DNA from: a virus
Direction: 5' to 3' (one strand)
Length of the DNA stretch: 64,000 nt
IMG/VR virus record: IMGVR_UViG_3300006928_000001
Span: 43,824 to 107,823 of that record
Shown here: positions 2,209 through 63,417 of the stretch, one piece after another
Layout: each line of letters opens with the position of its first letter
How positions within the stretch are numbered: position 1 is the first letter of the stretch
The notes under the pieces: model-generated
What the model saw: only the letters and a program-made list of their open reading frames with translations
Databases searched by the model: none
What the model was told of the DNA's origin: nothing
Position numbers and translations under genes: made by a program

Positions 2209-3873
2209 CTAGCCGTAAATCGTTTCAGCAAGCCAATTTAGTAACGACAGAGCTACGCTTCGTTGTTTTCTATGAGCGATGACTACGGCTTCATCTGGAC
2301 CATTGTCAACTACCAAATCGTAGATGATAGCTTTGTGCTTCAAACCATGCCGGTGCACTCGATCTTCAGACTGTGATCTTGCGATCGTTCCAAGTGGCTG
2401 TGAATAGTACACTGCCGATTTGCTATGCTGCCAGTTCAACCCAGCACCAGCCACACCCGGGTGTGCGATTACGGTATGATATCTTCCTGCTCTCCAGTCC
2501 GATTGAATCATATCTCTTTGACGAGCGGGCGTAGGCCCATGAATAATCGCGACTCCTCTCTTCCCGAGTAGTTCAACTACTCGTTGATATTCAACCCGTG
2601 AAAAGTCTGTTGTTCCGTCTTCTTTGAGAGGTCCATACACTTGACCCCCAACACGAAGGGCGGTGTCTGGTTCTTCCCCAGCCGCGACAAGCGCAGCGGC
2701 GATGACTTCTCTGGACCTCGAGGCCCAAATGTGACGTGGCGCACGGTCACCGTGGGCGTCTTTGATTTCTTCGATAACATCTCGGAGGAGGGCAAGCTTT
2801 CCACTGTGGACAGGTCGCCCTTCAAGATATCCACCCGTAAGCTCAATGGTTCGAAGTCGTTCGATGAGAACATTCTCAGGGACGATTGCGTGCCCGTCGT
2901 CAAGAACGGCACGATCGTCTTCGATGAGATCGAGCATAAGCTTAGCAGCTGACGGCGGAAGATCAAAAGAGCGTTTGAAGTAAATTTTGTCAGGGAGGTC
3001 AAGACACTCGTCCTTACGCCTACGAACTGTGTATGGATGCATTGGGTCAAGTACTTCGTATTGAATGCGTTTTTGATTTACGCCAACTACGAATGATCTA
3101 GACACACTGAACTGTTTACCCTTACTCTCCATCGGGTCATGTAGCTGACCGTATCTATACTTGAACGCATCAAACGAACCTGGGGCACCGGCTGGAAATC
3201 TAGCTTTCCCGATTGTAATGATATCTGGTGGAAGTCTCTTCAAAACGTCTGGGCGTACAAGCTTCGTTAAACCCCAGAGTCTCATATGCTCCGGTCTACC
3301 AATTGGAGTAGCTGTGATACCAGCAGCTCCAATGCAGGCAGACGCAAAAGCTCTAGCTGCTACACCTTGCCCTGAATGAGATAGTGCAACGCCTTGTGCT
3401 TCATCCACGACGATGGCTATACGCCTACCCCTTGCATGTATCATCATAGGATGATCAGCTTTTACGATGTTTTTGCGTCGGTACTTAGTCACCAATAGAC
3501 TACGAAGGCCGGAGAACGTAGTTGCCATTACCGTAAGTTTGTGCTGTTCAGTTCTCAATCCCGACGTGATGACATCTTCAATCAAGTCGTTATCTGGTGG
3601 TCTACAGTCGATGAAGTTCACCAACCCTTCAGGCCACGTTCGCCCATCAAATGTTTCGCGCCAGTCTGGCATCGTCATACTTGGTAGCACCAAGACAACT
3701 TCGTCAATGACACCTCTAAGCCAGAGGGTTTGAAGCCACCAAGCTGTTGTAGCAGTCTTACCAGTACCCAGTTCGTTCCAGATGTTAACCCTAGAAAATC
3801 GAGCTAGTCTTTGAACATCTTCAGCTTGATGTTTAAGCGGAGACCATTCCGCTGGTAGCAACTGGTACGTCAC
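2209..3873 (-). CDS. SNF2-like superfamily 2 helicase
   Basis: ELGTGKT (motif I), VDEAQ (II), TATP (III), GAGLNWQ (V), QSEDRVHRHG (VI). Confidence 0.9.
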   Translation of the reverse strand: MTYQLLPAEWSPLKHQAEDVQRLARFSRVNIWNELGTGKTATTAWWLQTLWLRGVIDEVVLVLPSMTMPDWRETFDGRTWPEGLVNFIDCRPPDNDLIEDVITSGLRTEQHKLTVMATTFSGLRSLLVTKYRRKNIVKADHPMMIHARGRRIAIVVDEAQGVALSHSGQGVAARAFASACIGAAGITATPIGRPEHMRLWGLTKLVRPDVLKRLPPDIITIGKARFPAGAPGSFDAFKYRYGQLHDPMESKGKQFSVSRSFVVGVNQKRIQYEVLDPMHPYTVRRRKDECLDLPDKIYFKRSFDLPPSAAKLMLDLIEDDRAVLDDGHAIVPENVLIERLRTIELTGGYLEGRPVHSGKLALLRDVIEEIKDAHGDRAPRHIWASRSREVIAAALVAAGEEPDTALRVGGQVYGPLKEDGTTDFSRVEYQRVVELLGKRGVAIIHGPTPARQRDMIQSDWRAGRYHTVIAHPGVAGAGLNWQHSKSAVYYSQPLGTIARSQSEDRVHRHGLKHKAIIYDLVVDNGPDEAVVIAHRKQRSVALSLLNWLAETIYG

Positions 3874-4059
3874 AGCTTAATCACGTTCCCGTGTTCGTCG
3901 GTGATGACTTCAACTGTTTCAGACGATTGAAACACAGATGCCATACTGACAACCCAGGTCCCCAAAGCTATCACGAGACATAGTGTAGACGCTGCCTCGT
4001 GTGTGGGCGCCAAGTAACCAGTCAACACTACCAGTGATACAGGAAACAAGTGATGCATT

Positions 4060-4314
4060 TTATCCTCCACAAACAAGAGCTTCACCAAGAGCGTCAGACA
4101 CATCGGTGTCGACTGCACCCTGAAGCTCCATAATCGGAATCCAGCGCCAGTCATCTGGCGGAGTCCCTGTAGAGTGCTGAATGACACGAACCGTGTTATA
4201 ATCGAATGACTCGATCACACTCGTGAACGACTCAACCTCTTCCACGGTAGGAATAGGGTCAGTAGTAGATGGCTTCGCCAGAACCTTCGTTCCACGAATT
4301 ACGATGGCAAGCAT
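4060..4314 (-). CDS. Hypothetical protein
   Basis: AGGGAG RBS, with a GGTATAAG -10-like box at about 4342-4349 upstream. Confidence 0.6.
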   Translation of the reverse strand: MLAIVIRGTKVLAKPSTTDPIPTVEEVESFTSVIESFDYNTVRVIQHSTGTPPDDWRWIPIMELQGAVDTDVSDALGEALVCGG

Positions 4315-4394
4315 TCTTGCTCCCTTAAGGTTTACAAGATACTTATACCACTGCCCTTAAGTGAGGACCATTCCGCAGAATCGTTTGTCTGCGC

Positions 4395-4880
4395 TTAGCC
4401 CCACATCCACTCAGACGTAAAATCGTTTTGCGGACATTCGATTTCATCAATCTGCGGAAATGGTGACTGTCCGTGCTTCACACGTTGAACAGCGACTTCA
4501 AATGTATTTCGCCCAATTGGCTTAAACGTCAGGCCGCCACCAACTCTGGTTTCTGCAGCGCGTCGTTTGTCGCGACTAGTAGCCCATCCGGTCATCAACC
4601 CAATTTTCGTCTTTGGGGAGTGCTCACGAATAGCCTCTCCTAGACCAACACCAACAGGACCACCATTCAACCGTACGTCGATTATAACGATGTTAGGTTG
4701 CCACTGCTCTGCTGTGTCTAGGGCTTCTCTTTTTGAAGTTACGCCACGTACACTCGCACCCAATCCTCGCATATGATTCATATACGATTTTAGTGCAATG
4801 ACGTTATCTTCGACGATAAGAACTCTTAGCTCTTCATTTGGGTCTGGTGGGTCTGGCCAAATATTGGTTCCTGGCATCAT
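4395..4880 (-). CDS. Stand-alone CheY-like response regulator receiver protein
   Basis: VLIVED acidic pocket, IIDVRL phosphoacceptor Asp, LMTGW Thr, FKP Lys-Pro. Confidence 0.9.
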   Translation of the reverse strand: MMPGTNIWPDPPDPNEELRVLIVEDNVIALKSYMNHMRGLGASVRGVTSKREALDTAEQWQPNIVIIDVRLNGGPVGVGLGEAIREHSPKTKIGLMTGWATSRDKRRAAETRVGGGLTFKPIGRNTFEVAVQRVKHGQSPFPQIDEIECPQNDFTSEWMWG

Positions 4881-5581
4881 GGGATTCCTTTAACACGCGT
4901 CTTGAGCGTGTTAGCTGCGGAGCTGATTACCCATCGTGTAAAAGCCGCTCTAGACGAGCGCACAGCAGAATCTTCGCTATCAGGGTCTTCGTCGTCATCC
5001 TCATTTGGCATGACCATCGACGCAGGTGCTGCGTGATGAACTGCTAGGTACACTAGCTTTCTATCGTCTTCGGCTCTCCATAGCGTTTCGATAGATGCAC
5101 TCAGAACGTCAGATACTTGCCACTGATCACGTAGCTGACCAGGATTGACCTCTGACAGATCAAGGATGATAGACTTCTCGTCTTTTTCGATGAGATGAGA
5201 AAGCACAGAAGCTCTGTACGAATCTGTTACTTCTCGTCTACTCCAGTGGTTCTTAATTGGTTCAACTGCCCTAAGCGTGGCTTCTGAGACAATCGTTATG
5301 AACAGGTTAGATTTCGCTTCTCGTAGTGCGCCACCACCATTAGTAACGACTACGATAAACGCTCTTAGAGCAGCAGTTTCATTTACGATTCGTTGAAGCT
5401 GATTCTGAATGGCGAGCATATCACCACCACTAGCTTCTGCGTTAAGCTCTTCCTGCTTATACTTACGCCACCGTGCCCATAGCTCTCTAATCAACTGTCC
5501 AAATGCTACAGACGCAGTTGAGATAGCCGCTGCCACTTCTTTAGGGTGTGACTGAATGATTGCGTCAAACCAAGCAAGCAT
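4877..5581 (-). CDS. N-terminal membrane helix + GAF-like domain protein (T-holin-like fold)
   Basis: Ala/Ser-rich helix followed by RWRKYK; LQRIVNETAALRAFIVVVTNGG and a late beta-strand (LVYLAVHH) fit GAF topology. Confidence 0.55.
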   Translation of the reverse strand: MLAWFDAIIQSHPKEVAAAISTASVAFGQLIRELWARWRKYKQEELNAEASGGDMLAIQNQLQRIVNETAALRAFIVVVTNGGGALREAKSNLFITIVSEATLRAVEPIKNHWSRREVTDSYRASVLSHLIEKDEKSIILDLSEVNPGQLRDQWQVSDVLSASIETLWRAEDDRKLVYLAVHHAAPASMVMPNEDDDEDPDSEDSAVRSSRAAFTRWVISSAANTLKTRVKGIP

Positions 5582-6249
5582 TAGTCCATACCACCACGAA
5601 TAAGTTCAAACGTCTTTTCACCACGATCAGACGCTTGAATGGAATTCATTTTGTGCTGAATCTCATTGAGAATCTGCTCACGGTCACTAGCCTTTTCTGA
5701 CCAGAAGGCGCTAGCACGACCCTTAAGATTGAGGTCCGGCATCATCTCGGCTAGTGATTCTTCAACTGAGGTTAGTTCTCTACATGCATCGCGTAGAGCT
5801 GTAGAGAACTGCGTTTTTCCGCTTTCACACTTTTCTAGTTCCGTCATTACGTATGCCGAAAGAGCTTCCCAGCGTTCCATAACCATGCGAATCTTAGTAG
5901 AATGGAACTCGATACCAAGAATAGCCCACACCTGAGCTTCAGCTTCAAGCAAAGCATCTCGACGAATCGCTGACCGTTTGGACTGAAAGATGGCACGCTT
6001 CTCTCTCCACCGCTCAGCGCGAGACCGTCTGCGTAGTTCACCTGGAACTGTGTGCTGCTCCATCTCTTCGAATTGGTCTGAATACATGCGGACAAGCTGC
6101 TGCATAGTCAATGGCACAGGACTGCAGATGAAAGCATCACCTGGGTCCTGGAAGACCAAGCGCAGATCTTCAATTGAACCATTGCCATTTTGAAGACGAT
6201 TGATCAGTGAAGTCTGACTCTCGTCAAGTCCGTCGTTGTCGTCTCGCAT
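5581..6249 (-). CDS. Putative terminase small subunit-like / HTH protein
   Basis: TMQQLVRMY...LRRRSRAERWREKR HTH-like segment followed by long helices. Confidence 0.35.
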   Translation of the reverse strand: MRDDNDGLDESQTSLINRLQNGNGSIEDLRLVFQDPGDAFICSPVPLTMQQLVRMYSDQFEEMEQHTVPGELRRRSRAERWREKRAIFQSKRSAIRRDALLEAEAQVWAILGIEFHSTKIRMVMERWEALSAYVMTELEKCESGKTQFSTALRDACRELTSVEESLAEMMPDLNLKGRASAFWSEKASDREQILNEIQHKMNSIQASDRGEKTFELIRGGMD

Positions 6250-6268
6250 CTTACCAAGATACCCCGAC

Positions 6269-6751
6269 TTATCCTGTGATTCCAGACCTGTGAGCTCGAC
6301 TGTTTTCGATGTGACGCCAAGATACGTACCGTGCTAACTTAGCATCTTGTGGTGCTACATTTATTTGATTCTCGACAAAGATTCGATACGCATCGATAAC
6401 ATATTGACTGTTACCATCAATCTCTGGAGGTCGTAGCCCCATGATCCATTGTCTAGACATTTCTACGATTTCTTTTGTACGCTTATGGTGAGACCCTAGA
6501 GGTCTGAGATACCGTGCCATCCGTCTGTGCGCGTCAGACGGCGCGAAGGCTACATTATGCGCTCGTGGCCAATCAATGAGAAACTTCCATATAGCTTCGT
6601 CATTGAGTATCATGCTAGCCAGTACTACTCGCCAACTATGCTCGTCTTCATCTTCGCCACCTACCATTTCCTGCGGTAGTAGAAGTGGGCTTTCAGGGTA
6701 CCCTCGGTTCTCAACTTGGAGGAGCAAGTATTCAAACTCGTAGTCAATCAC
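6269..6751 (-). CDS. MBD4-like HhH DNA glycosylase
   Basis: Colinear with the MBD4 catalytic domain: LPQE, WRVVLASMILN, WKFL..WP, LRPLG, IDAYRIF, PQDAKL..YVSW. Confidence 0.8.
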   Translation of the reverse strand: MIDYEFEYLLLQVENRGYPESPLLLPQEMVGGEDEDEHSWRVVLASMILNDEAIWKFLIDWPRAHNVAFAPSDAHRRMARYLRPLGSHHKRTKEIVEMSRQWIMGLRPPEIDGNSQYVIDAYRIFVENQINVAPQDAKLARYVSWRHIENSRAHRSGITG

Positions 6752-6867
6752 GTTTCTGACTCAGTACAGGAGTAGATTCTAGTCGAGCGATTTCGTTGTT
6801 AATTTTACGCAGTTCCTCTTCAAGCTTACGTTTCTTTTGATGAAGAAGCATTAAACGTTGATTATGT

Positions 6868-9051
6868 TCATCCACCGATGAGGAATGCATGGGCCTCTCC
6901 AATAATATCTTCGATAGCGATGTTCCCGACGAATGTATCACCAGTGGGGCTAGTACCACTAGTAGCATCTCGGTAGAATCGAATCCACAACTTGTCTCCA
7001 GGCACGAACGATGAGATGTCGAGCTCGAACTCTGTACGCTGGAGCACGTCATCATCAGCGGGAACAATGGCTGTGATCTCGGTGATCGTGTCGATGGCCA
7101 CACCAGAACCATCGATTGTATCTCCGATTCGAGCTCGGCCATACTCGATGGACAGCGCAACGTTACCGGTGGCTGACGCCCGGGGAAGCCAGTCGATCCG
7201 GAACCGAGCTTTAATTGCTGTGTTCACCCAATTTGGCATGATGACCTTGGCACCACGGGCGTCTACCTGACCATTGTTGTACGAGTTGTCGCCTGGAGAG
7301 AGCGATGTCGTCGAGCTATACGCGATGTTGTTGTTACCAGGGCTTGTCGATGTGTTGACTGTGTCGGCGAAACGGATCAGAGTCCGCCACTGTTGGAGAA
7401 GCCCGTAGAGTTTGGCCCCCACCTGATCCGCGGCCAGACGGCTCGTGCCGATCTCGCATCGGCTGAACTCCATGGGAGTTGTGAACGTGGTGGCCGGTCG
7501 AACTGACAGCCAGTAGTACTCCTGACTGTTATGTGTATCAGCATCCCAGTCGTCAAAAGCCGTTGCATGGTGGTCTAGATGCTGTGCAACCCGCGTTGAC
7601 GTATCGTCTTTGAATACATCGTTTCCGACTGGGTCGACGCCTCGAACCAGACTGGCGTCCATGACGTCGATCTCGTTCCAGCCGCTAGCACCGTCGGACA
7701 GTTCGATCACTACGTCTCCGGAACCTAGTGCCGTAGCCAGAGCGTACACCCAGTTCGTGAACTTGCCAAACTTGTAACCAATGAGAATTCGGTCATTGGT
7801 GTCACCGGGATGCACTACGTTGGTACCATCACTGACGTTGGCTGTGACGTCGGTGTAGACACCAGAGCCTCCTCCAGCGCTGTCGTCGTACGAGAGGACC
7901 ACCATGTTCTCGACGCCGGGTGCACCCTCGACAGCATAGAAGTTCTGCGGGTTTCTGGGTGCACCATGACTGAATCGACCACCTGCGCGTGTAGTTGGCG
8001 GGTTTACCACACCTTCGTCGAAGTAGAATACCCGCAGATCGTCACCAAGACCGGACACGAACGAAGCTGGGACGTCGATCTGCTCGCGCCGCATCTCCAT
8101 GCTGGTGAGCGAAAGAATGGAGCCACTATACGCTGGGCCATCATCTGCTGTGAAGTCATTGGCCGTTCCGTGGAGACGACCGCCGTTCATGACCATCGTG
8201 AATGGTCCGTCGCCGAAGTGAACCGCGTTGTTAATTCCACCACCACCATTCGGTGTGATGATTTTGACATCGACATACGCTCCGGCAGAACCACTGTCGA
8301 ACACAAAGACAGTGTCGGTGATCGTCATGGCAGGGCCACAGTCGATGGTACCTGGTCCTGTCACGTTTGCGTCTGTGTTGAGATTGATTCCCTTCGCCAA
8401 AGAGCCGTTGTTGAAGTTGATGCCTCCAGCGAGAACTCGCACGTTTCCGTCGTTCACCTCGATACCAGCCACAGCTGCCGAACCACTGTTGAACGACAAT
8501 TGGTTGACAACCAAAGCATTGGTGTTCTCGGCTCTGACGCCTTCACCACCACCGGTGGGGACTTGGCAGACTACTCGAGTCAGAAACGAGTTCGCTCCCT
8601 GTGTTAGAATCGAAGGGGACGAACCGTCAGCACCACCATTGACACGAATGTCCTGGATGCTGCTGTTATTGTTCAGCGTGATTGTTGGGCCAGTACCATC
8701 ACCTTCGATGACCGTGGCACTGATAAGTGTCGCGGCCATGATCTTGACACCAGCAGGTGTGTCGACACCAGACCCCACGTTAAAAGTACTCGGCCCAAGT
8801 ACGACCACGTCACCTGATGTTGCGTCTTGAAACGCTTCGGCAATCGTGTCGTAACTTTCCTGCGTAGTAGCCGTCAGAAGGTTTACACCAACAAACGAAT
8901 TGATGTCGTCCAACGCGGCGTTGACTGCCGTGTACCATGCCCACTCAAGTTCTAGATGCTCAGCAACCAAATCAATGTCTGAATATGGACGTGCTGCGTC
9001 AATCATTGTAGTAGCCTCGTGTGTTATATTGAGGCTACTACAGTTGTTCAA
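6868..9051 (-). CDS. Beta-helix (tailspike/pectin-lyase-like) virion protein
   Basis: TIAEAFQDATSGDVVVLGPSTF beta-helix cap, G/N/T-rich coils, C-terminal beta-sandwich; true start may be the MIDAA Met near 9006. Confidence 0.65.
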   Translation of the reverse strand: MNNCSSLNITHEATTMIDAARPYSDIDLVAEHLELEWAWYTAVNAALDDINSFVGVNLLTATTQESYDTIAEAFQDATSGDVVVLGPSTFNVGSGVDTPAGVKIMAATLISATVIEGDGTGPTITLNNNSSIQDIRVNGGADGSSPSILTQGANSFLTRVVCQVPTGGGEGVRAENTNALVVNQLSFNSGSAAVAGIEVNDGNVRVLAGGINFNNGSLAKGINLNTDANVTGPGTIDCGPAMTITDTVFVFDSGSAGAYVDVKIITPNGGGGINNAVHFGDGPFTMVMNGGRLHGTANDFTADDGPAYSGSILSLTSMEMRREQIDVPASFVSGLGDDLRVFYFDEGVVNPPTTRAGGRFSHGAPRNPQNFYAVEGAPGVENMVVLSYDDSAGGGSGVYTDVTANVSDGTNVVHPGDTNDRILIGYKFGKFTNWVYALATALGSGDVVIELSDGASGWNEIDVMDASLVRGVDPVGNDVFKDDTSTRVAQHLDHHATAFDDWDADTHNSQEYYWLSVRPATTFTTPMEFSRCEIGTSRLAADQVGAKLYGLLQQWRTLIRFADTVNTSTSPGNNNIAYSSTTSLSPGDNSYNNGQVDARGAKVIMPNWVNTAIKARFRIDWLPRASATGNVALSIEYGRARIGDTIDGSGVAIDTITEITAIVPADDDVLQRTEFELDISSFVPGDKLWIRFYRDATSGTSPTGDTFVGNIAIEDIIGEAHAFLIGG

Positions 9052-9066
9052 TGAATACCAATCGAT

Positions 9067-9258
9067 TTAATCGTCTGTCACCGCAGCAGCCACAAGCATT
9101 ACGAACGTGTGTAAGACCGCTACCATAACCAATACGACTGTTACAATCGTCATGACAATTGAGACTACTACCATTGCAGCTCGTATTATGAGGTCCATAG
9201 GATCAAACGTCCAAACGTCCAAGTCCGGTGGTTCGGAGTCATTCGAAGTCGTGGGCAT
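9067..9258 (-). CDS. Small membrane protein
   Basis: Long hydrophobic stretch, GAAGGT RBS. Confidence 0.5.
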   Translation of the reverse strand: MPTTSNDSEPPDLDVWTFDPMDLIIRAAMVVVSIVMTIVTVVLVMVAVLHTFVMLVAAAVTDD

Positions 9259-9388
9259 GGCACCTTCGTGGCATCTAGGGTAGTTTACAATTGCCGAATT
9301 AGTTCGGGGCCCGAGCTTGGTGGGACGGGCCGTCGTGGGCTGTAGTAACTGGGTACCCCTTTCCCCGGCTGCTATGGCCCACGGCCGT

Positions 9389-9916
9389 CTACAGAGTGTT
9401 GTTCCTTAGTTCACGCCACATTCTAAGTACATGACGAGCATGCCGTAGAATTTGAACGTTGTCCAAATGAGCAATCCACAATGACCAAGATTTATCGTAC
9501 CTGACCGAGTGCTTGACAATTTCGTCTGGTGTCAAGTTCTTTGTACCAATTTGAGACATGACGTCTCGACCGCACACGTGTGGGTTATTAGCGTATTGTG
9601 CCGTTGCCTTCATGACAGCTGCAACAGTAGCTTCAGACCCTTCCGGTGAAAGAAGTCTTTCTACCGCTTCGGTACGAATCAGAATCTCACGCCTGAAATC
9701 TGCTTCGATCCGTGAAAGTTTGACGATCTGTTCTACATCTGGGAACTTGTCGCAGATATTTTCTGCTGCCTCTTGCCAGACCGCGTCTAGCCAATCTTCA
9801 AACTGACTTGGTGGCATGTCTCCACTGTACCTGTACCAAACCGCACGAAGCAGGTATGAGCAGCAGACTTCTTCTACGTAATTTTCAAGTTGCTTGAGTG
9901 TGGACATCGTTAACAC
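9389..9916 (-). CDS. Hypothetical protein
   Basis: ORF coupled to the upstream gene. Confidence 0.6.
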   Translation of the reverse strand: MLTMSTLKQLENYVEEVCCSYLLRAVWYRYSGDMPPSQFEDWLDAVWQEAAENICDKFPDVEQIVKLSRIEADFRREILIRTEAVERLLSPEGSEATVAAVMKATAQYANNPHVCGRDVMSQIGTKNLTPDEIVKHSVRYDKSWSLWIAHLDNVQILRHARHVLRMWRELRNNTL

Positions 9917-10770
9917 CCCATCCGAATTTCAGCCATTCGCTCTGCGTGATGCGCCGCTTCATCCGCAGCCATTTCATTACGCCAGGTGAGCCATGCGTCG
10001 TACATCGGCTTGTCATCTGGATGAATAGCTGACTCTACCACAGCGATGTCATGGCCACCACCATTACAGCTGTAGCAGCGAACGTCGAAAACACCACTGA
10101 AGTAGTTATCGCGAAAGCCGGGGTCTTCATCGAACTCGCGAGACGAGATACCGCCAGCATCTACACTGGGGTTTACGTGAGTGCCCTTACCACCGCACGT
10201 CTCGCATGGAACACGCTTGACTGGCAGTACCATCTTGCGGAAAGGCCTGTACTCTCTGTCTTCCATGTCAGGGTCAGGCTTCTCTTCGTCTAGACGTACG
10301 AGAACTGAGGACTTTCCGTCGATGCACCACGAATCGTTACACTTTTCCTTACGAAAATTTTCGGGGCTCGTTTCAAACTCGCTTTGATAATTAGCCCACA
10401 TCGGGTCGGTGGGGGTTCCATCTGCACGGAGTGTAACGCCTTGCCACTCTTTATGCCGATACATAACCCTGTGACCTTTACACTTCTGACAAGGCTTGTC
10501 GATTGGTTGACGTTCCATGGAGATTACTGGCCGACCTCCAGCCTCGAAGTCTTCGGGGTCATAACCTGCGTCAGCCAGCAGCTGGTAGTCTGCAGTTGGG
10601 ACCCTGACTACCGCTTCAGTAGGTCCCTTCTCGTTATCGAGGCCGATGTACCAAGCTTCCTTGCCAAGGGCAAGTACCCGGCGGTCATTGTGGTAATTGA
10701 CGTTCTCGAGTGTACTATGCATTTGTAAGCTCCCAATCAGTGATTCTGATATCAGAACTACCACGGACAA
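9910..10770 (-). CDS. DnaJ-type zinc-finger protein
   Basis: CQKCKG, CNDSWCIDG, CETCGGKG and CYSCNGGG motifs; start probably MHSTL near 10722. Confidence 0.65.
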   Translation of the reverse strand: MSVVVLISESLIGSLQMHSTLENVNYHNDRRVLALGKEAWYIGLDNEKGPTEAVVRVPTADYQLLADAGYDPEDFEAGGRPVISMERQPIDKPCQKCKGHRVMYRHKEWQGVTLRADGTPTDPMWANYQSEFETSPENFRKEKCNDSWCIDGKSSVLVRLDEEKPDPDMEDREYRPFRKMVLPVKRVPCETCGGKGTHVNPSVDAGGISSREFDEDPGFRDNYFSGVFDVRCYSCNGGGHDIAVVESAIHPDDKPMYDAWLTWRNEMAADEAAHHAERMAEIRMGC

Positions 10771-21610: not shown

Positions 21611-22206
21611 TACTCATCCTCCTCAGACCAGCACCAGTTCTGGCTGAACAATTGCATTACTGTCACTACTTTGTTGTTCCACTCATGATTGAGTGTCTTA
21701 CTTGGTACGAGTAGGTTGACGAAACAACAAACTTCCACAGAGAGGCTGTTGTGGTCTTTGATGATGAGGTCATCGTGAAACCATTCAAACTCGTAACTGG
21801 TTTCACCGAATTCCTTATCACTTTCGGTAACTTCGTCGATGATGGCCTGAACTTCCTTGCGTTCGAAATACGGGTTAGCCCAGCCGTTCCAACGCCGTTC
21901 AGACGGAACAACGTACCCTGGCTGGCTAAACATCGAACCTTCGCCATCGATGCTGAAACGATTGGGCTGTGCTCGGAACAGTTTGCTAGTAAGGCCCAGG
22001 TCGTGCTCACGTGGATGCTTGAACTGAGTTACTAGCGTTTCCACTGTCCCATCATCGTCAACGGGACGAGTGACATGAAACAGACCGACCAAGTCTTTTG
22101 TGACGTTGTTGTAGAAGTCACGGTAGTGAGTACGCCTGGTACTAGCAGCCACGCGACTATTGTGCCAGATGGTGAGGTTGCGGTCTCGAAGTTCTGTACT
22201 AGTCAT
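21610..22206 (-). CDS. Phage protein with WNGWxxPxF motif
   Basis: RWNGWANPYFER. Confidence 0.6.
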   Translation of the reverse strand: MTSTELRDRNLTIWHNSRVAASTRRTHYRDFYNNVTKDLVGLFHVTRPVDDDGTVETLVTQFKHPREHDLGLTSKLFRAQPNRFSIDGEGSMFSQPGYVVPSERRWNGWANPYFERKEVQAIIDEVTESDKEFGETSYEFEWFHDDLIIKDHNSLSVEVCCFVNLLVPSKTLNHEWNNKVVTVMQLFSQNWCWSEEDE

Positions 22207-22460
22207 TAGAACAGCTCCTTTTCGATTAGCTCGTCACTAACTTCTGTCCACCTGGCTGTAACAGTCTCGCTGATCTCAGTTCCAGAGTAGTCTCCGCCAC
22301 TAGGAACCTTCATGACCAGTTTTGCATCATTTGGAATGCTAATTCCTAGATGCTGAAGCGCAGCAATCATGACTTCGTTTGGTACGGTTAGTTCTACGTT
22401 TTCGTGTGTCTTGACCTTTCGAGTGACCTTTAGTCCAAGGGGCTTATGTTGATTCATCAC
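22206..22460 (-). CDS. Hypothetical protein
   Basis: VPSGGDYSG motif; coupled ORF. Confidence 0.6.
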   Translation of the reverse strand: MMNQHKPLGLKVTRKVKTHENVELTVPNEVMIAALQHLGISIPNDAKLVMKVPSGGDYSGTEISETVTARWTEVSDELIEKELF

Positions 22461-23098
22461 GCATCTCCTGCTGTGTTGACCATCTGCAAAGAAGCTTGCA
22501 TGGTAATCATTTTGTGAGCCTCTTCGTACATCTCAGCTACCTCTCCCGCCAGGGCCATGTACAGTTGTGCTTCACAGAATACCACCGCTTCTGGGTGCAT
22601 AGTCTTTCGTACTAGATCTGCCTCGTCGATGGCTGATCCGTCTTTGAGCATGAACCTTGTGCAGTTGACTGTAACGTGTGGTGGTTGCTGCATGGTAAAG
22701 CCGGAGTAGATCGATGAACCCATCGGCTCAAAGACTTGAATGATGCTTTCGTACAAGCCGTGTGGGCATCCCTTCTCAAGTTGTTCGAGTGCAGGCTTTG
22801 TACAGGCTTGGTACGGCAGACATCCTAGCTGAGGAGTGTAGATTGCTAGTCCGACCTTGCCAGCTTCATTGATGCACTGTTCTGTATCGAATGTGACAGG
22901 AAGCGCGTCATTAACACACTTGACCAAGACGTCTACGAGTAGCTGAGGGTTCTTGACTCCGTATCGGAGTACATCCGCGTTGGACCGAACCATGAATCTA
23001 ACCGCCTCGAACATCTTAGCGTGCGTCTCACAGCAGATGTGGTCAGGGTTCATCTGGCCTGACTTTAGGAACCAACGAATGTCATTGGGGTCTAGCAT
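22457..23098 (-). CDS. Hypothetical protein
   Basis: GAGGTAA RBS. Confidence 0.65.
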   Translation of the reverse strand: MLDPNDIRWFLKSGQMNPDHICCETHAKMFEAVRFMVRSNADVLRYGVKNPQLLVDVLVKCVNDALPVTFDTEQCINEAGKVGLAIYTPQLGCLPYQACTKPALEQLEKGCPHGLYESIIQVFEPMGSSIYSGFTMQQPPHVTVNCTRFMLKDGSAIDEADLVRKTMHPEAVVFCEAQLYMALAGEVAEMYEEAHKMITMQASLQMVNTAGDA

Positions 23099-23111
23099 TG
23101 TTTTACCTCTT

Positions 23112-23348
23112 TCAGAGTTGAGATTCTAGTCGTACTTGAACAGGAACAACTTCCCAGGTTTTGCCAAGAAAGAACCTGTCTTTCTTCGGTAGCTTTCTGT
23201 CAATCCACTTAGCAGCAGTCTTGGCTGCTGTTGGACTAGAGAATACACGAGCTGCACTGAACCGTGATACGTACATCCGATACCGTGACCCGCCAATGAA
23301 GAACTGCCTGTTGTCAGAGCAACGGAGTATCCAGCGTGTAGTGGTCAC
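23112..23348 (-). CDS. Small basic protein
   Basis: Coupled ORF. Confidence 0.55.
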   Translation of the reverse strand: MTTTRWILRCSDNRQFFIGGSRYRMYVSRFSAARVFSSPTAAKTAAKWIDRKLPKKDRFFLGKTWEVVPVQVRLESQL

Positions 23349-24184
23349 TTGTGCGTGACCTCAATCTCAATGATACCATCGTCAGTGTCTCGCAGTTGAC
23401 CCTTCAGACCCTTCTGGATTAGAGCGTTCTTTGCTGCATCATCTGTCATGCAGCCTAGTGGAGCGAATGAACCACGACCAAACTTGCCGTACTGGTCATC
23501 GGGCAGGATTGGACCATAAAACACGGCCTTCTTGCCTTCCCAGCACCAGGACCAGTCAGGGTCGAGCCAGATGATCATGAATGTAACAGGGACAACATCG
23601 TAGTCCTTAAACGCCCGGTAGTGTGTGAACCCCAGGTTGTACAGAAACTCATGGAATCCTGGGTGTTCAGATGGAACCTCTGACGCATTACAGAGCTCGT
23701 AGTACATGTCGTACAAGGTCTTGTCGTTAGTCAACTCGCCATTGACAAGCAGACCTCCGCCGGAGCCTTCCATAGTGGTGTCATCAAACACCTTGGCGCC
23801 GTATGGGAAGTTCATCATGTAATTGTTCATTTCAAGTACTCCTCGTAAGCATCCAAGTCGACAAACTCGTGGAGAGTGTGCAGAACCCGGGCCGTAGTAG
23901 TCGAGTGTTGCTCCAGCTAGGCGTTCTTGCATCATCTGCAGAGTGGCTTTCTGGGCGTCCGTCAAGTTGAAATTCTTCTTGTCACTAACAAGCTCGCGGC
24001 ACTTCGGACAGGTGATGGTAGAAAGTGGCCTGTCTTCGTTTAGCCAGGATGGTGCGACGAAGTCGTGACCTTCTGGTGAGGTAACGCCTTCATAATCAAT
24101 ACGAAGTGTCATGCCACAGTACGTATCAACAGTTGCTAGACTGACTTTGCAGTCATGCTTCTCAATGTGAATGACTCCGGTCAT
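23345..24184 (-). CDS. Hypothetical protein with N-terminal Zn-binding motif
   Basis: H...TYCG...ITCPKC; likely start MTGVIH. Confidence 0.6.
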   Translation of the reverse strand: MTGVIHIEKHDCKVSLATVDTYCGMTLRIDYEGVTSPEGHDFVAPSWLNEDRPLSTITCPKCRELVSDKKNFNLTDAQKATLQMMQERLAGATLDYYGPGSAHSPRVCRLGCLRGVLEMNNYMMNFPYGAKVFDDTTMEGSGGGLLVNGELTNDKTLYDMYYELCNASEVPSEHPGFHEFLYNLGFTHYRAFKDYDVVPVTFMIIWLDPDWSWCWEGKKAVFYGPILPDDQYGKFGRGSFAPLGCMTDDAAKNALIQKGLKGQLRDTDDGIIEIEVTHK

Positions 24185-24462
24185 TGTGCTTGCCTCTTTC
24201 TGATGTTGTCTGCCCAAATTGCACCTAGCGTGTCAAAGTCTTCTGAGAAGAACACGTTGAATCCATATCCGTGCTCTTCAAATTCGATGTTGAGCTCTAT
24301 TGTTCCTTTGATGAAGTCTTGATACAGCTGGCCTAGAACACAGCGTGTACACGTTGTCATATCAAGCACGTCTAGGTCGATTTCATGGTGCCAACCAGGT
24401 CGCTTTGCGTCTAGTAGCGCGATGCCATTGCTAACACACAACTCTAGGTTTTTTCTATTCAT
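24181..24462 (-). CDS. Conserved-type phage protein
   Basis: GIALLDAKRPGW...CVLGQLY; GAGGTA RBS before MNRKN. Confidence 0.6.
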   Translation of the reverse strand: MNRKNLELCVSNGIALLDAKRPGWHHEIDLDVLDMTTCTRCVLGQLYQDFIKGTIELNIEFEEHGYGFNVFFSEDFDTLGAIWADNIRKRQAQ

Positions 24463-24929
24463 GACTGTACCTCTTTCAAGTAGTTGAACGCGTCTTCGTT
24501 CCTCAAAATACCTAGGTTTTGTGTCTCGCATGACAGGTGGCCATGTTTACCGATAAACACACGGGTTTCGTGCATCTTGAAGTGTAAGGTGCCTTTCGCC
24601 GATTGCTTCGTAATGTCGCTGAATGCTAAACCGAGATCTTCCATCGTGTTGAGTTGTGGCTCAAGCACTTGGTAAGCGGTCTTTTCCTGAAGGAAGTGTG
24701 CCTTCAGCTCTTTGATGAGGTCACCTGGTGTAATCCAGGAGTGTCGTCCCCAGGTGACACGCCCAGTTGTACCAATATAAATAGTCGTATGGACATCGTT
24801 GTGAGACGCTTTTAGGCACACAGTGCCGCGGGCTGTTTGCTCGATGAGCTTGAGCTTAACGCCGGGGATGGCTGTGTAGAGGGCATTCTGCATGTCCTCT
24901 TGACTAGCTGTGAGTGGCTTGTGGAGCAT
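24459..24929 (-). CDS. Hypothetical protein
   Basis: Coupled ORF; apparent internal duplication (RGTVCLK..IYIGTTGRVT / KGTLHFK..VFIGKHGHLS). Confidence 0.6.
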   Translation of the reverse strand: MLHKPLTASQEDMQNALYTAIPGVKLKLIEQTARGTVCLKASHNDVHTTIYIGTTGRVTWGRHSWITPGDLIKELKAHFLQEKTAYQVLEPQLNTMEDLGLAFSDITKQSAKGTLHFKMHETRVFIGKHGHLSCETQNLGILRNEDAFNYLKEVQS

Positions 24930-34664: not shown

Positions 34665-34901
34665 GTGCAGTCAGTTACAATACAATTTGAATACGAGACA
34701 CGTATCCTCACTGCCGAAGGCATCCAGGAAATGGAAAACGAGTCAGGATGGTCACTTGTGTCAGCCAGTGTGCTTGACCCAGATAAACATGAGCAATTCA
34801 TCAAATGGGTTTGTCTTGTAAGACGTCCCATTGTACGTAACACTTTGACGCTTGACGCAATTCGTGAAATGAAGAGGAGTCACTCCGATGAACAGTCGTA
34901 A
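34665..34901 (+). CDS. Hypothetical protein
   Basis: AGGAGGAG RBS. Confidence 0.55.
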   Translation: MQSVTIQFEYETRILTAEGIQEMENESGWSLVSASVLDPDKHEQFIKWVCLVRRPIVRNTLTLDAIREMKRSHSDEQS

Positions 34902-36690
34902 CTTGAAGCCCAGCGACCAGCTGGAGATGATCGCGGATAACATCCGTACCGGCAATAAGGCCGGTGAAATCACAGCCCTTGGAGCCTGCGTGTTCGCTGG
35001 TGGGTTTAGCTTCGGCTTGGAAGAAGCTGGGTTGAAGGTGTGCGGGCATTTTGAGCTCACTGACCTTGAGCTAGGTGCAGAGACTTCGGCAGCGAAGTGG
35101 CCTGTTCTAGTGGCTCCGCTGGAGAAGGGGTACGAGCCGAATAGTGCGTTTCCTACTGACCCCACGACCTGGCAGAGTGCTATTACGTACCTGAAGGATA
35201 ACGACGCCATCCCTCGGGTGATGTTCTGCAATCCCCCATGTGCTGCTTTCGCCAAGAATGGTGCTCGTGGTGGCATGGATGATAACGACAACATGTGTTA
35301 CAGTCGTTACGTCACCTACCAGCTATGTATGAAGATTCAGCCGGAAGTGTGGATGTGGGAGCTCGTGCCTGGCATCTTCGAGGATACCAAGGATGGTGGC
35401 CGTGACTTCCTCGACAAGATGGCTGAGGAGGCTCAGGCCAACGGCTATGAGGTTCACTACTTCCTGACCTCCGCTGCTCACCACGGTGGGTACCAGAATC
35501 GTCCTCGGTTCCACTTTGTGGCCTCCAAGGTAGGTCTGGACTGGGCTGGTACCTACAAGGAGGATGGAGATGAGCATAAGGGGTGGAAAACGCTAGGAGA
35601 ATGCCTTGATAAGCTCGAGCAATACATCGCAGAGAACGGCCCAGTGCCGAATCATGAAGGTGAACGCATCTCTGGAGGGGCACTCCTGGACATTATCCCG
35701 TTTTGCCCGCCCGGTGGCTACCTCCGGGACGTCAAAGACGAACTCATGGAGAAGCATTATCGGCCCCGTGGACAGCCGTGGAATGGTCAGAGTCGTGCCG
35801 GTGTGACACAGTTGCGCGGTCGTCGAGACCGTACTAGTCCAGTCATCATCGGTGGTCACACAGTTATTCATCCTGAGAAGAACCGTTTCCTTACGATCCG
35901 TGAATCCGCAGCTGTTATGGGTTTCCCGTACGACTACCAGTTCAGTCACGGTAGCAAGGGCTACGCAGAAGTCGGCAAGGGACTCTGTACGCACAACGCT
36001 AGGTTCCTTGGTCTGACGGTGAAGACTGGCATCGAGCTTCAGGAAGCTGGTAACGGCATTACGGTCGACACGACCAAGGTGCACGTCGTTGACTGGCGTG
36101 GCCAGGTCAAGGTTCCTAGTCAGTCCTCTACTGACGAGGAGCGAATCGAGTGGTTCAAGAAGCGTCACCCTGAGTTGGACCCGCAGCTTGGTTTGGCTCG
36201 GCCTAAGCGTGGGCCTGGTCGCCCGAAGGGTGGTAGTTCGCGACGTGGTCGTCGTGGCCGCGGAGGTCCTAAGACTGTTCTCATTATCGGTGACAACGAA
36301 GAGCTCCAGGAAACCTTGGAGAAGATGGAGTTTAACGTCGAGATGGATGACCTCGACAACATCGAGATGGACGACCTTCCTGAGGTTCTCGGTAAGGCGG
36401 GGCGCTCTCACTGCATTGTCGTGAGGGGGCCTTCCTGGGATACACAGGAGTTTATGGTTCTCGGTGCGTGTCTGGCTCAAGGGACGCGACTGGTTCTGTA
36501 CAACTTTGCAGGACTTCCGGAAGGAGTCCCGGATCATGCGTCTATTACCGTGTCTGGTAAGAACAAGACGACGGCTGTGGCACCAATTATCGCGCAGGCT
36601 CTTGGTATGAGTGCCGAGGATGTGCTTAGCAAGATGATGGAAGGGCAGGATGCTGCATCTCTCCTGGCGAAGCTGTTGGAGGCGTCGTAA
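34888..36690 (+). CDS. C5-cytosine DNA methyltransferase with AT-hook/RGG linker and extra C-terminal domain
   Basis: FAGGFSFG (I), NPPC (IV), ELV (VI), QNRPR (VIII), RFLTIRESAAVMGFP (IX), VGKGL (X). Confidence 0.9.
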   Translation: MNSRNLKPSDQLEMIADNIRTGNKAGEITALGACVFAGGFSFGLEEAGLKVCGHFELTDLELGAETSAAKWPVLVAPLEKGYEPNSAFPTDPTTWQSAITYLKDNDAIPRVMFCNPPCAAFAKNGARGGMDDNDNMCYSRYVTYQLCMKIQPEVWMWELVPGIFEDTKDGGRDFLDKMAEEAQANGYEVHYFLTSAAHHGGYQNRPRFHFVASKVGLDWAGTYKEDGDEHKGWKTLGECLDKLEQYIAENGPVPNHEGERISGGALLDIIPFCPPGGYLRDVKDELMEKHYRPRGQPWNGQSRAGVTQLRGRRDRTSPVIIGGHTVIHPEKNRFLTIRESAAVMGFPYDYQFSHGSKGYAEVGKGLCTHNARFLGLTVKTGIELQEAGNGITVDTTKVHVVDWRGQVKVPSQSSTDEERIEWFKKRHPELDPQLGLARPKRGPGRPKGGSSRRGRRGRGGPKTVLIIGDNEELQETLEKMEFNVEMDDLDNIEMDDLPEVLGKAGRSHCIVVRGPSWDTQEFMVLGACLAQGTRLVLYNFAGLPEGVPDHASITVSGKNKTTAVAPIIAQALGMSAEDVLSKMMEGQDAASLLAKLLEAS

Positions 36691-43449: not shown

Positions 43450-44373
43450 TTGAGTACTGAAGCTGCCACTCAGATTGCCATTCAGATCGCCATGAAGGCA
43501 GACCTACTTAGGTCTGATCTTCGTGAGGGTCTTGTGTGGTTTGTCAACTACGCAGCGCTTGATCCGACTTCCATCAAGGTCGATGACCTGGACCTTCATG
43601 GTGCAGGAATGCTTCCTGAAGACGTCGAAAAGTTCGCTCATCGTTGGCTTGGGTACAGTCGTTCTATCGACATCAATCATGATGGAGTCGGTCGACCTAT
43701 CCATGTTATCGAGTCCTTCTTTAACTCCGAAGATGTTAAGGCTGCATCATGGCCTATCAACTCCCATGCAGTTCGGTTTAACATCTCTCAAAGTCAGGAA
43801 GCCATGGACGGAATGCGTAATGGAACACTCAACAGTGTTTCTCTAGACGCATTGACCTTTAACAAGGTTGTAAGGCTTCCTGCCGCAGAAGCTAAGGCGT
43901 TCGCTCCAAATCAGGAGCCATTCGTCCCGCCCACTACGGTTAAGAAGTGGGCGGAAGAGCTTGCGCAAGATGGATATCCTGGTATTACCGGGGTTAAGCA
44001 AGTTGGTGACGGGATGTTTATTGCACAGCGATCGTGCGGACTTCCCGTTGCTATCACCATAAAGAACGGTGGCCTTGAAGCCAGTGCGGCATCTGGACCT
44101 TGGGCTCACATCGGAATGGCTCTCTGTACGTCTCCTTCTTTGACCAGGAACGCTATTCGACTTCCTGATGGCCCACAAGGTCAGCAGACCACCTTGATTG
44201 ACTCTTCTGTAGTTGACAAGATGCTTGCAGAACAGGGACTTTCCACCCCGGAACAGCGTGTTTCGGCGCTAGAAGCCTATATCGAATCTATCTCTGGCGG
44301 AATTGCTGGAGCTGCAGGCGGCGACCCTGATCCCATTCCTGGACTTCTCGAAGACGGGATGGAGATTACATGA
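43450..44373 (+). CDS. XkdF-like prohead protease
   Basis: DLHG...EDVEKFAHRW...IDINHDG...IESF...GTLNSVSL. Confidence 0.75.
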   Translation: MSTEAATQIAIQIAMKADLLRSDLREGLVWFVNYAALDPTSIKVDDLDLHGAGMLPEDVEKFAHRWLGYSRSIDINHDGVGRPIHVIESFFNSEDVKAASWPINSHAVRFNISQSQEAMDGMRNGTLNSVSLDALTFNKVVRLPAAEAKAFAPNQEPFVPPTTVKKWAEELAQDGYPGITGVKQVGDGMFIAQRSCGLPVAITIKNGGLEASAASGPWAHIGMALCTSPSLTRNAIRLPDGPQGQQTTLIDSSVVDKMLAEQGLSTPEQRVSALEAYIESISGGIAGAAGGDPDPIPGLLEDGMEIT

Positions 44374-62055: not shown

Positions 62056-62355
62056 ATGGCCCTTACTCCCAAGACCACCAAGTATGTGATCACGGCGATT
62101 GTAGTGATCACGCTTCTTATCGTCGGGTACGCTATGTACCAGAATGGGTACGCAGAAGGTGCGACTGCTGCTGCTGGTGCAGCTACCGCGGCCGGTGCTG
62201 CTGCGTATGCCACCGGACGCGAACGTCAACGCGTTGATGACGTAGTTGATGACGCTCGAGAGTTCGTGGCTGACAGTAGTCAACCGGTAGTGAGTCCTGA
62301 ACCGGTTAAGAGCGTAGATAACGTTGCTGATAAGGCTAACGAGTTGTCGTCGTGA
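62056..62355 (+). CDS. Membrane lysis protein (holin/spanin-like)
   Basis: TM helix plus Ala-rich helix, AGGAGG RBS, upstream of the endolysin. Confidence 0.55.
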   Translation: MALTPKTTKYVITAIVVITLLIVGYAMYQNGYAEGATAAAGAATAAGAAAYATGRERQRVDDVVDDAREFVADSSQPVVSPEPVKSVDNVADKANELSS

Positions 62356-62732
62356 TAGCTCTTATCCTATCTTTAGCGTTGGCTCAAGACTTGCCATTAG
62401 TTAAGTGTAACGATGAAACTAAAATGTGTGATGTACATGTAGAGCGGCTTAACGTACTTAACCACAAAGCAGGTCAGTACGAAGATGTCAAGCTTAAGCT
62501 TGATGACGCACTTGTCAAGATTAGCAGACTTGCTGACGAGCTGGAGAAAGCAAATGACACGCTATCTGAGCAAGATGCCAGGTTGCTGGCCCTTCAGGTC
62601 CAGCTTGCCGATGCCGGAATCAGAACCCAACAAGCTACCAGACAACGCAACACCGCCTACGTCATTGCCGGAACCACATTCGCCTCGATCCTTGGAGGAG
62701 GTTACCTTGTCTTACGAGCTACCAGGCGATAA
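62352..62732 (+). CDS. Spanin-like coiled-coil protein
   Basis: Signal peptide, coiled coil, C-terminal TM with RATRR. Confidence 0.55.
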   Translation: MIALILSLALAQDLPLVKCNDETKMCDVHVERLNVLNHKAGQYEDVKLKLDDALVKISRLADELEKANDTLSEQDARLLALQVQLADAGIRTQQATRQRNTAYVIAGTTFASILGGGYLVLRATRR

Positions 62733-63417
62733 GAAGCGTATCATCGAGAGTGTAGTCGGTCTTTTTGAAACTGGCAAGCCAGGTGGTGGAGACTACACTA
62801 CTTGTGTATACCTCGCTGACGGTGCTGGTATCACGTATGGTAAGCACCAGGCTATTGACCGTAGTGGTAGCCTAGACGCTATTGTACAAAGATACATTCT
62901 ACTTGGTGGAGTATACAGGGACGATCTCAAGAAGTTTCAGACTCTTCTTGAAGAAAACGGTACCGTTGGTTTCGAGCCTGATGATCTTCCAGCACAAGTG
63001 ACAGATCTAATGCATCTGTTGTTTATTACAGGTAGTGACCCAGTCATGCACCAGGCCCAAGACGAGGTCTTTGACGAATGGTACTGGAACCCGATGGAAG
63101 TCAAGTGCAAGGAGCTTAAGCTAGAGCTCCCGTTAAGTTGGCTCGTTATGTACGACAGTTCCATCCATAGTGGTCCAGCCGGTATCGACCGTACTCGAAA
63201 CCTGTTTCCGCAGGTCCCACCGTCTAAGGGTGGCACTGAGAAAGTGTGGACTACCGCGTATATTGAAGCTCGACGCGAGTGGTTGGCGACCCATAGCAAA
63301 ACCATCCTGCACGGTACAGTGTACCGGCAGGATGCTATGCTTGATCTTGTAGCCGCTGGAAATTGGGACTTGACAACTCCATTTCAAGTTGCCAAGCCTA
63401 GAGCTACGATTACTTAG
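62707..63417 (+). CDS. Endolysin, GH46 chitosanase-like (lysozyme fold)
   Basis: VGLFETG...DY....LADGAGITYGKHQ, QAQD, YDSSIHSG; GGAGGAGG RBS before TTG at 62707. Confidence 0.75.
   Translation: MSYELPGDKKRIIESVVGLFETGKPGGGDYTTCVYLADGAGITYGKHQAIDRSGSLDAIVQRYILLGGVYRDDLKKFQTLLEENGTVGFEPDDLPAQVTDLMHLLFITGSDPVMHQAQDEVFDEWYWNPMEVKCKELKLELPLSWLVMYDSSIHSGPAGIDRTRNLFPQVPPSKGGTEKVWTTAYIEARREWLATHSKTILHGTVYRQDAMLDLVAAGNWDLTTPFQVAKPRATIT

Follow-up and report, generated by a model that had tools for sequence, protein, structure and literature searches.

The timing of host lysis is understood in very few phage systems, namely lambda S, T4 T/RI/RIII, and ICP1 TeaA/ArrA. In phage T4, the holin T is regulated by RI on its periplasmic domain and by RIII, a cytoplasmic antiholin, on its cytoplasmic domain (PMC11413866). 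Phages may also carry receivers: the cultured Alteromonas phages V22 (gp30) and A5 (gp11) each encode a CheY-like protein that stands alone, and no kinase has been reported in these phages (PMC10579305, PMC7289586). These genes are located after the tail-fiber genes and are regarded as auxiliary, their function being untested (PMC10579305). Stand-alone receivers of phages are thus already known, and GAF domains and receivers are both common. Here, we analyzed a 64,000-nucleotide (nt) stretch of viral DNA (the window), which corresponds to positions 43824–107823 of the 107,823-bp IMG/VR virus record IMGVR_UViG_3300006928_000001. It contains a gene for a GAF-fold protein of 234 amino acids (aa), p234, that overlaps the gene of a 161-aa stand-alone receiver, RR161. 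What is new is the placement of p234 in a large viral family that recurs in lysis cassettes and has an inverted predicted topology, and the recognition of its pairing with a receiver as a conserved, lineage-specific module.

Organization of the Gene Pair

The phage record has direct terminal repeats and a completeness estimate of 100%. The two open reading frames (ORFs) described in a first-pass annotation of the window, 4877–5581 for p234 and 4395–4880 for RR161, are both present on the minus strand with the 4-bp overlap that had been described. The junction reads CCCATGATGCC, where the TGA stop codon of p234 shares bases with the first ATG of RR161 to give an ATGA overlap; if RR161 started at its second ATG instead, the overlap with p234 would be 1 bp. 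A Shine-Dalgarno sequence (AAGGA) is located upstream of RR161. On the other side, p234 is coupled via TAATG to the gene of p222, a 222-aa all-helical protein taken from the ORF list (5581–6249, minus strand). The genes of p222, p234, and RR161 are therefore three translationally coupled minus-strand genes. No match to p222 was detected in Pfam, PHROG, NCBIfam, PADLOC, or PDB, and its single-sequence AlphaFold2 (AF2) model, with a predicted local distance difference test (pLDDT) score of 58.5, was unusable.

RR161 Is a True Receiver without a Phage Kinase

RR161 is a true receiver. It matched the Pfam family Response_reg (PF00072) with 48.3 bits at a cut-off of 30.2 (E value, 1.3e-12) and with 48.9 bits in the genome search. 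When aligned to solved receivers, E24/D25, D68, T97, and K120-P121 occupied the catalytic positions, so that every phosphorylation residue is retained, as had been proposed. The receiver core is extended by 17 aa at the N-terminus and by approximately 30 aa at the C-terminus, and the total length of 161 aa agrees with the earlier view that an output domain is absent. All of the 30 nearest Atlas clusters were Response_reg, and those listed were bacterial stand-alone receivers. In NCBIfam, only sub-threshold matches were obtained, led by stand-alone receivers of the PRK13435 type and by PhyR. The top matches in both NCBIfam and PDB belong to the partner-binding single-domain class, with the NCBIfam scores lying far below the family cut-offs. 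RR161 returned only the query in the word-indexed homologue search and had no tblastn match among GenBank phages.

Bacterial single-domain receivers, including CheY (which binds FliM), DivK, CpdR, and the PRK13435-type proteins such as Sma0114 (PDB 2lpm), share with RR161 the fold, the catalytic residues, and the lack of an output domain. RR161 differs from them in being viral, in having no cognate kinase, and in its presumed partner, a viral GAF protein. The receivers of phages V22 and A5 are similar to RR161 in that they are phage-encoded, single-domain proteins of approximately 150 aa located among small hypothetical genes. However, their neighbors encode products of 87–136 aa, which are too short for a GAF protein, and no partner gene conserved alongside them has been described.

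The absence of a histidine kinase, previously noted for the window, extends to the whole phage: a profile search of the complete 107,823-bp genome detected no HisKA, HisKA_2, or Hpt domain. The receiver thus has no cognate kinase or Hpt protein alongside it, as a complete two-component system would. A match to HWE_HK (14.8 bits) was below the cut-off and contained an internal stop, and was not accepted as a kinase. The sole HATPase_c match in the genome belongs to a topoisomerase VI-like fusion and not to a histidine kinase. This gene lies outside the window (genome positions 22123–24747, minus strand; L003:5124-7748) and encodes an 874-aa single-chain fusion of a GHKL ATPase and a Toprim domain, with an N-terminal HATPase_c domain bearing a trace of the Topo-VIb transducer and a Topo VI-A/Spo11 Toprim domain at the C-terminus. 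The product is a phage enzyme of the fused topoisomerase VI/VIII-like kind.

p234 Adopts a GAF Fold

An exhaustive HMMER search with p234 yielded 34 relatives of approximately 200 aa (E values, 5e-27 to 9e-4). The AF2 model of p234, computed from the alignment with these 34 relatives, had a pLDDT of 94.1 and a predicted template modeling (pTM) score of 0.82. The protein is composed of a short N-terminal helix, an Ala/Ser-rich anchor helix (residues 16–34), a basic and aromatic belt (WARWRKYK), a stalk helix up to residue 68, a GAF-fold domain (71–183), an acidic insertion (approximately 190–205), and a C-terminal helix (203–232). In the model, residues 13–68 form one long helix, and residues 71–183 form a five-to-six-stranded sheet with helices.

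All top matches in a Foldseek search against PDB were GAF domains (4glq; E value, 3.7e-6), namely those of a cyanobacteriochrome, a phytochrome, and GAF-derived fluorescent proteins, and 178 matches were found at E ≤ 1e-3. VIA, which is independent of Foldseek, aligned p234 with the solved GAF structure 6mgh_A at a Z score of 13.3 (139 aa, 3.1 Å). It returned 98 chains at Z ≥ 8, and most of the 50 listed were GAF domains. The GAF-like character first proposed for 4877–5581 is thus confirmed at the level of the fold. At the level of sequence, neither p234 nor any of the 34 relatives matched the Pfam GAF profiles (PF01590, PF13185, and PF13492) at E ≤ 0.1, and p234 had no annotation in Pfam, PHROGs, NCBIfam, PADLOC, or the PDB profile search; PF01590 is found in 26–44% of the members of related Atlas clusters.

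The residues N81, G83, E100, and Y122 are conserved in the family and may line a candidate pocket. Cyanobacteriochromes of the kind that headed the fold list attach bilin covalently. Covalent bilin attachment was rejected for p234 because it contains no Cys. The phage genome holds a single copy of the family. With p234, the word-indexed homologue search returned only the query and tblastn against GenBank phages gave chance-level matches only; two further queries, P0047 and P0032, had no tblastn match there. Scans of IMG/VR and of genomes with p234, the subclade alignment, P0036, P0057, P0029, and P0021 also gave no match.

p234 Belongs to a Viral Family Found in Lysis Cassettes

Approximately 30 virus-only clusters in the Atlas share the architecture of an anchor helix followed by a GAF domain, with scores of 0.95–0.97 to p234, and some of them carry Pfam GAF. 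Full-length look-alikes in BFVD come from Tenacibaculum and Cellulophaga phages, Cronobacter phage GAP32, Klebsiella phage RaK2, and crAss-like phages. The small GAF proteins of viruses, which include phrog_29276, the UniProt entries named 'GAF domain-containing protein' from uncultured Caudovirales, and gp31 of Polaribacter phage P12002L, are homologous to p234 and have the same architecture (HMMER E values, 1e-27 to 1e-3; hhalign, 95.8–98.4%). They differ from p234 in that they have no adjoining receiver, that most have a more hydrophobic anchor helix, and that they lack two features of the p234 subclade, the acidic insertion and a conserved His-His. The members at loci L021 and L009 match phrog_29276, whereas p234 itself matches no PHROG. 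These results indicated that p234 belongs, as a divergent member, to a virus-specific family whose proteins are approximately 200 aa long and consist of an anchor helix at the N-terminus, a stalk helix, and a GAF domain predicted to face the cytoplasm.

Independent support for a link to lysis, which had been suggested at first for this pair, came from the neighborhoods of the homologues. The family profile matched four of 401 sampled Bacteroidota genomes, and an endolysin gene was close by in all four. At one prophage locus (L019), the family gene overlaps a downstream gene for an M15C L-Ala-D-Glu endopeptidase (PDB 8q2g; E value, 2.6e-8). At the second (L020), a Peptidase_M15_3 gene precedes the family gene with a 1-nt overlap. 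The third (L021) has a small phrog_15610 membrane protein, the family gene, an Amidase_2 gene (1-nt overlap), and two spanin-like genes in order, and the fourth (L017) has tail-fiber genes, the family gene, and a GH108 + PG_binding_3 enzyme gene 1.2 kb downstream. An endolysin gene also adjoins the family gene in the cultured Polaribacter phage P12002L (L024, NC_028924.1; 3652–4941), where gp30 is a 95-aa protein with several hydrophobic segments, gp31 is a family member of 207 aa (hhalign, 95.8%; E value, 7e-9), and gp32 is annotated as an endolysin. The receiver-coupled subclade that includes p234 aligned with the lysis-cassette members with an hhalign probability of 98.4% (E value, 6e-15). 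Because the family gene often stands behind a small multi-transmembrane protein, these contexts suggest that the family is a lysis accessory or regulator and not the hole-former itself. P12002L offers a cultured, tractable system for the role of the family in lysis. Neither lysis proteins of the GAF type in phages nor this GAF–receiver pair were the subject of any paper found in our literature search.

Two further observations were made on the family neighborhoods. The phrog_15610 protein, which is labeled 'protease', is a membrane protein of approximately 105 aa with an HExxH motif (L021:2280-2597, minus strand; L006:7016-7342, plus strand). Its two copies are 37% identical; one is located directly before the family gene in L021 and the other 0.5 kb after the receiver gene in contig L006, and phrog_15610 is absent from the phage studied here. 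In a complete 51.5-kb IMG/VR phage, a family member (L007:5818-6453, plus strand) is located between an exonuclease gene (phrog_284) and a gene for a SocA/Panacea-domain protein (72.9 bits).

Anchor Helix, Topology, and Comparison with Holin T

The best 19-residue Kyte-Doolittle mean of p234 was 1.19 (residues 16–34), which is below the usual value of 1.6. The maxima of its four closest relatives were 0.86–1.43, and 18 of the 34 family members reached 1.6, whereas the maxima of T holins were 2.19–2.86. A Hessa-type sum, with approximate scale values, was +7.9 for p234 compared to −2.1 to +0.8 for T holins. The initial description of p234 as a transmembrane helix joined to a GAF-like domain therefore stands for the GAF part, but its helix is marginal on both measures, and membrane insertion of p234 itself is doubtful as judged from its sequence.

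The basic stretch RWRKYK reported after the helix is present. In the 15-residue flanks of the helix, Lys and Arg residues averaged 0.38 on the N-terminal side and 4.1 on the C-terminal side across the family. Based on this bias, the GAF domain is predicted to be cytoplasmic if the helix spans the membrane. The cytoplasmic placement proposed from the positive-inside rule is thus supported across the family, but for p234 it is subject to the doubtful insertion of the helix.

T4 holin T is similar to p234 in its size of approximately 220 aa and in its layout, a single N-terminal helix with one alpha/beta globular domain. The periplasmic domain of T (6pxe_T) aligned with the p234 model at a Z score of 10.5 (135 aa, 3.5 Å), although it ranked 44th, below generic GAF domains, and annotated T or class III holins in BFVD matched p234 at E values of 1e-5 to 1e-3. 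In contrast, when the family profile was compared with seven T holins, from T4 to T5-like phages, the hhalign probability was 0.2%, and Pfam Phage_holin_T matched neither p234 nor any of the 34 relatives. The parallel with T drawn in the first-pass annotation consequently holds for the fold, whereas sequence kinship with T holins was rejected. Other differences were also found. The Cys pair that is invariant in T holins (C175 and C207) is absent from p234, the T helix is far more hydrophobic, and the topology predicted for the p234 family, with a cytoplasmic GAF domain, is opposite to that of T. The partners of T are RI and RIII, and the putative partner of p234 is a phosphorylatable receiver. 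The p234 gene is not near lysis genes, but its relatives, like T4 t, are located in lysis cassettes or after tail-fiber genes.

The lysis cassette of this phage was found at window positions 62056–63417 on the opposite strand, approximately 57 kb from the gene pair as described earlier. It consists of a 99-aa holin candidate with a single transmembrane segment (62056–62355, plus strand, identified by ORF and hydropathy), a 126-aa membrane protein ORF (62352–62732, plus strand), and a GH46-type endolysin (within 62485–63417, plus strand; Glyco_hydro_46, 47.7 bits). The holin candidate is strongly hydrophobic, with a Hessa-type sum of −0.8 on the same scale, and the cassette looks self-sufficient.

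These data bear on the possibility that p234 is a class III, T-like holin and RR161 its cytoplasmic antiholin. The T-like size and layout, the fold matches to 6pxe_T and to the T holins of BFVD, and the holin-like positions of family genes beside endolysins are all compatible with it, and T4 itself has a cytoplasmic antiholin, RIII (PMC11413866). Nevertheless, we regard it as improbable. In addition to the negligible profile similarity, the higher scores of generic GAF domains, the weak anchor, the opposite charge bias, and the missing Cys pair, a separate holin candidate adjoins the endolysin of this phage, and a small multi-transmembrane protein precedes the family gene in both P12002L and L021. 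T/RI/RIII still serves as the best functional analogy for a small partner that binds the soluble domain of a lysis membrane protein.

The GAF–Receiver Pair Is Conserved in a Second Contig

The closest clade to p234 is approximately 33% identical to it, and one of its members is encoded on contig Ga0114918_10003755 (L006). In this 13.3-kb contig, the GAF homologue (5459–6109) is followed by a gene for a 132-aa protein (6106–6504). The junction, cgATGAaa, has the same ATGA overlap, and the second gene has its own Shine-Dalgarno sequence, GAGGAAA. The 132-aa product is a receiver as well, with a Pfam score of 36 bits and 28% identity to RR161 (E value, 3e-7), and the DD, D, T, and K residues are kept. 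By tblastx, the rest of the contig showed no similarity to this phage, and it contains no counterpart of p222. Therefore, the conserved unit is the two-gene pair, and p222 is outside it. The tblastn search with the L006 receiver against GenBank phages gave one chance-level match. Co-occurrence of the two genes beyond this phage, which the first annotation had left to be checked, was thus observed.

RR161 might, on the other hand, act independently as a phosphate sink, a decoy of host kinases, or a CheY-like modulator, with p234 as a mere operon neighbor. Such a role would accord with the resemblance of RR161 to ordinary bacterial stand-alone receivers, with the receiver families of unassigned function held in PHROGs (phrog_731), and with the kinase-less CheY-like genes of phages V22 and A5 (PMC10579305). 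However, the pair and its 4-bp overlap recur in a contig that is otherwise unrelated, which favors a functional unit, and translational coupling implies a fixed stoichiometry of the two products. An independent role is therefore considered unlikely.

No receiver was found beside the family gene in any of the eight other contexts (L007–L009 from IMG/VR, the four Bacteroidota loci, and P12002L), and the complete viral genomes G001 and G003, which carry the family, have no receiver anywhere. These results indicated that the receiver is a lineage-specific addition to the family. Full-length members of the receiver-coupled subclade all contain a hydrophobic-acidic insertion after the last strand (four of four), which we infer only as a candidate docking element. 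Acidic peptides that bind CheY are present in FliM and CheZ and provide a loose analogy for this insertion.

A known type of operon, exemplified by Cph1-Rcp1, combines a GAF-containing kinase with a single-domain receiver. By comparison with such operons, p234 might be a small-molecule sensor that controls the phosphorylation or the availability of RR161, as a phosphatase or a sequestering partner, with RR161 acting on host targets. GAF domains are classical small-molecule sensors, and the top fold matches of p234 are sensor modules of phytochromes, cyanobacteriochromes, and kinases. However, DHp, catalytic, and Hpt modules are all missing from p234. Longer fused forms were searched for and not found, although this is weak evidence. 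The family also functions receiver-free in most phages, and RR161 has neither an output domain nor a known target. We consider this sensor role quite unlikely. Since the family works without a receiver elsewhere and p234 has no phosphotransfer module, the receiver is more readily understood as an added input to a pre-existing effector. The direction from GAF sensor to receiver that was first proposed is accordingly not favored, and the reverse direction is more likely.

Genomic Context of the Pair

The genes of p222, p234, and RR161 are located in an early/replication block. Nearby genes on the same strand, identified by Pfam and PHROG, encode an SNF2-type helicase (2209–3873, minus strand), for which the best identity was approximately 24%, to Pseudomonas and Serratia phages, and a Pam3 gp34-like protein. 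The late genes are located on the plus strand from approximately 27 kb to 64 kb. Over 3700–9400, promoter-like sites were not more common than in shuffled sequences, and nine terminator-like sites were found compared to 4.0 ± 2.0 in shuffles, approximately twofold more, with none at an operon boundary. A DNA similarity search with the p234/RR161 region gave no match.

The early placement of p234 raises the possibility that it is not involved in lysis but is an early sponge for a small molecule, such as a cyclic nucleotide, or an anti-defense protein. The GAF fold and the virus-specific nature of the family are consistent with this, and one relative adjoins a SocA/Panacea gene. On the other side, no match was found in PADLOC or to other defense proteins, the adjacency to endolysins is repeated, and the anchor helix and the stalk are conserved. 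To our knowledge, the conserved N-G-G, E, and Y residues are also unlike any known cyclic-nucleotide motif. There is, in our judgment, only a slim chance that p234 has such a function.

Several other ORFs of the window were noted. A 62-aa ORF (3870–4058, minus strand) with one strongly hydrophobic segment (Kyte-Doolittle, 2.06) is packed between the stop of an 84-aa ORF (4060–4314) and the start of the SNF2 helicase gene, approximately 300 nt downstream of the receiver gene, and may encode a small membrane protein in the transcription unit of the receiver. Upstream of p222, a 160-aa ORF (6269–6751, minus strand) had no Pfam or PHROG match. Farther upstream is a gene for a 727-aa beta-helix-like protein (6868–9051, minus strand) of repetitive sequence and with no Pfam or PHROG match, which looks like a tailspike, although its gene is on the early strand and distant from the structural block. 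A 286-aa protein (9910–10770, minus strand) contains repeated CxxCxGxG-type zinc-finger motifs, with a sub-threshold match to the DnaJ central domain (24.5 bits). The plus-strand block begins with a gene for a 600-aa protein (34888–36690, plus strand) that carries a C-5 cytosine DNA methylase domain (70 bits).

A Possible Role for the Pair

The reading that we favor, while rating its probability at somewhat below even, is that the receiver provides a lineage-specific phospho-input onto a lysis-accessory GAF protein. A gene of the p234 type would have left the lysis cassette in this phage lineage and would now be co-translated with a phosphorylatable receiver. Because the phage has no kinase, the phosphate on D68 of RR161 would come from a host histidine kinase or from acetyl phosphate. 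Like other single-domain receivers, RR161 would act by binding a partner, for which p234, made in stoichiometric amounts alongside it, is the putative candidate. In this manner, the phospho-signaling state of the host could become an input to whatever p234 controls. Judged from the context of the family, the controlled event would probably be the timing of lysis or a different late event near the membrane. Of these, lysis timing is the guess with the most support for p234, but its role may have changed, given its location in the early block and its weak anchor.

Several findings weigh against such a phospho-input onto lysis. The p234 gene is located among early/replication genes, and the late genes are on the other strand. 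The endolysin gene is 57 kb away and is already adjoined by a conventional holin candidate. The anchor helices of p234 and its closest relatives are too weakly hydrophobic for a transmembrane call. In addition, the family occurs in three contexts other than lysis cassettes (exonuclease/SocA, upstream of a portal gene, and tail fiber/S8 protease), and only two independent instances of the pair were seen, both from the same subclade.

A bolder form of the phospho-input reading, which we hold to be rather doubtful, would make the pair a component of a lysis clock. The cytoplasm-facing GAF domain would be gated by the receiver, phosphorylated by a host kinase, and would time or veto lysis according to host signaling. 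The anchor-helix and GAF family would then comprise lysis regulators of a new class, which sense in the cytoplasm and have a topology inverted relative to that of T4 T.

The anchored-GAF proteins form a large virus-specific family without a described function, whose members lie beside endolysin genes in several phages and prophages. If the receiver gates the GAF protein, the pair would provide a direct route for host two-component signaling into a phage decision, and a D68 mutant would offer a testable handle on an opaque family. Even if the link to lysis fails, the pair would still be a compact case of a receiver that is carried by a virus and has a partner dedicated to it.

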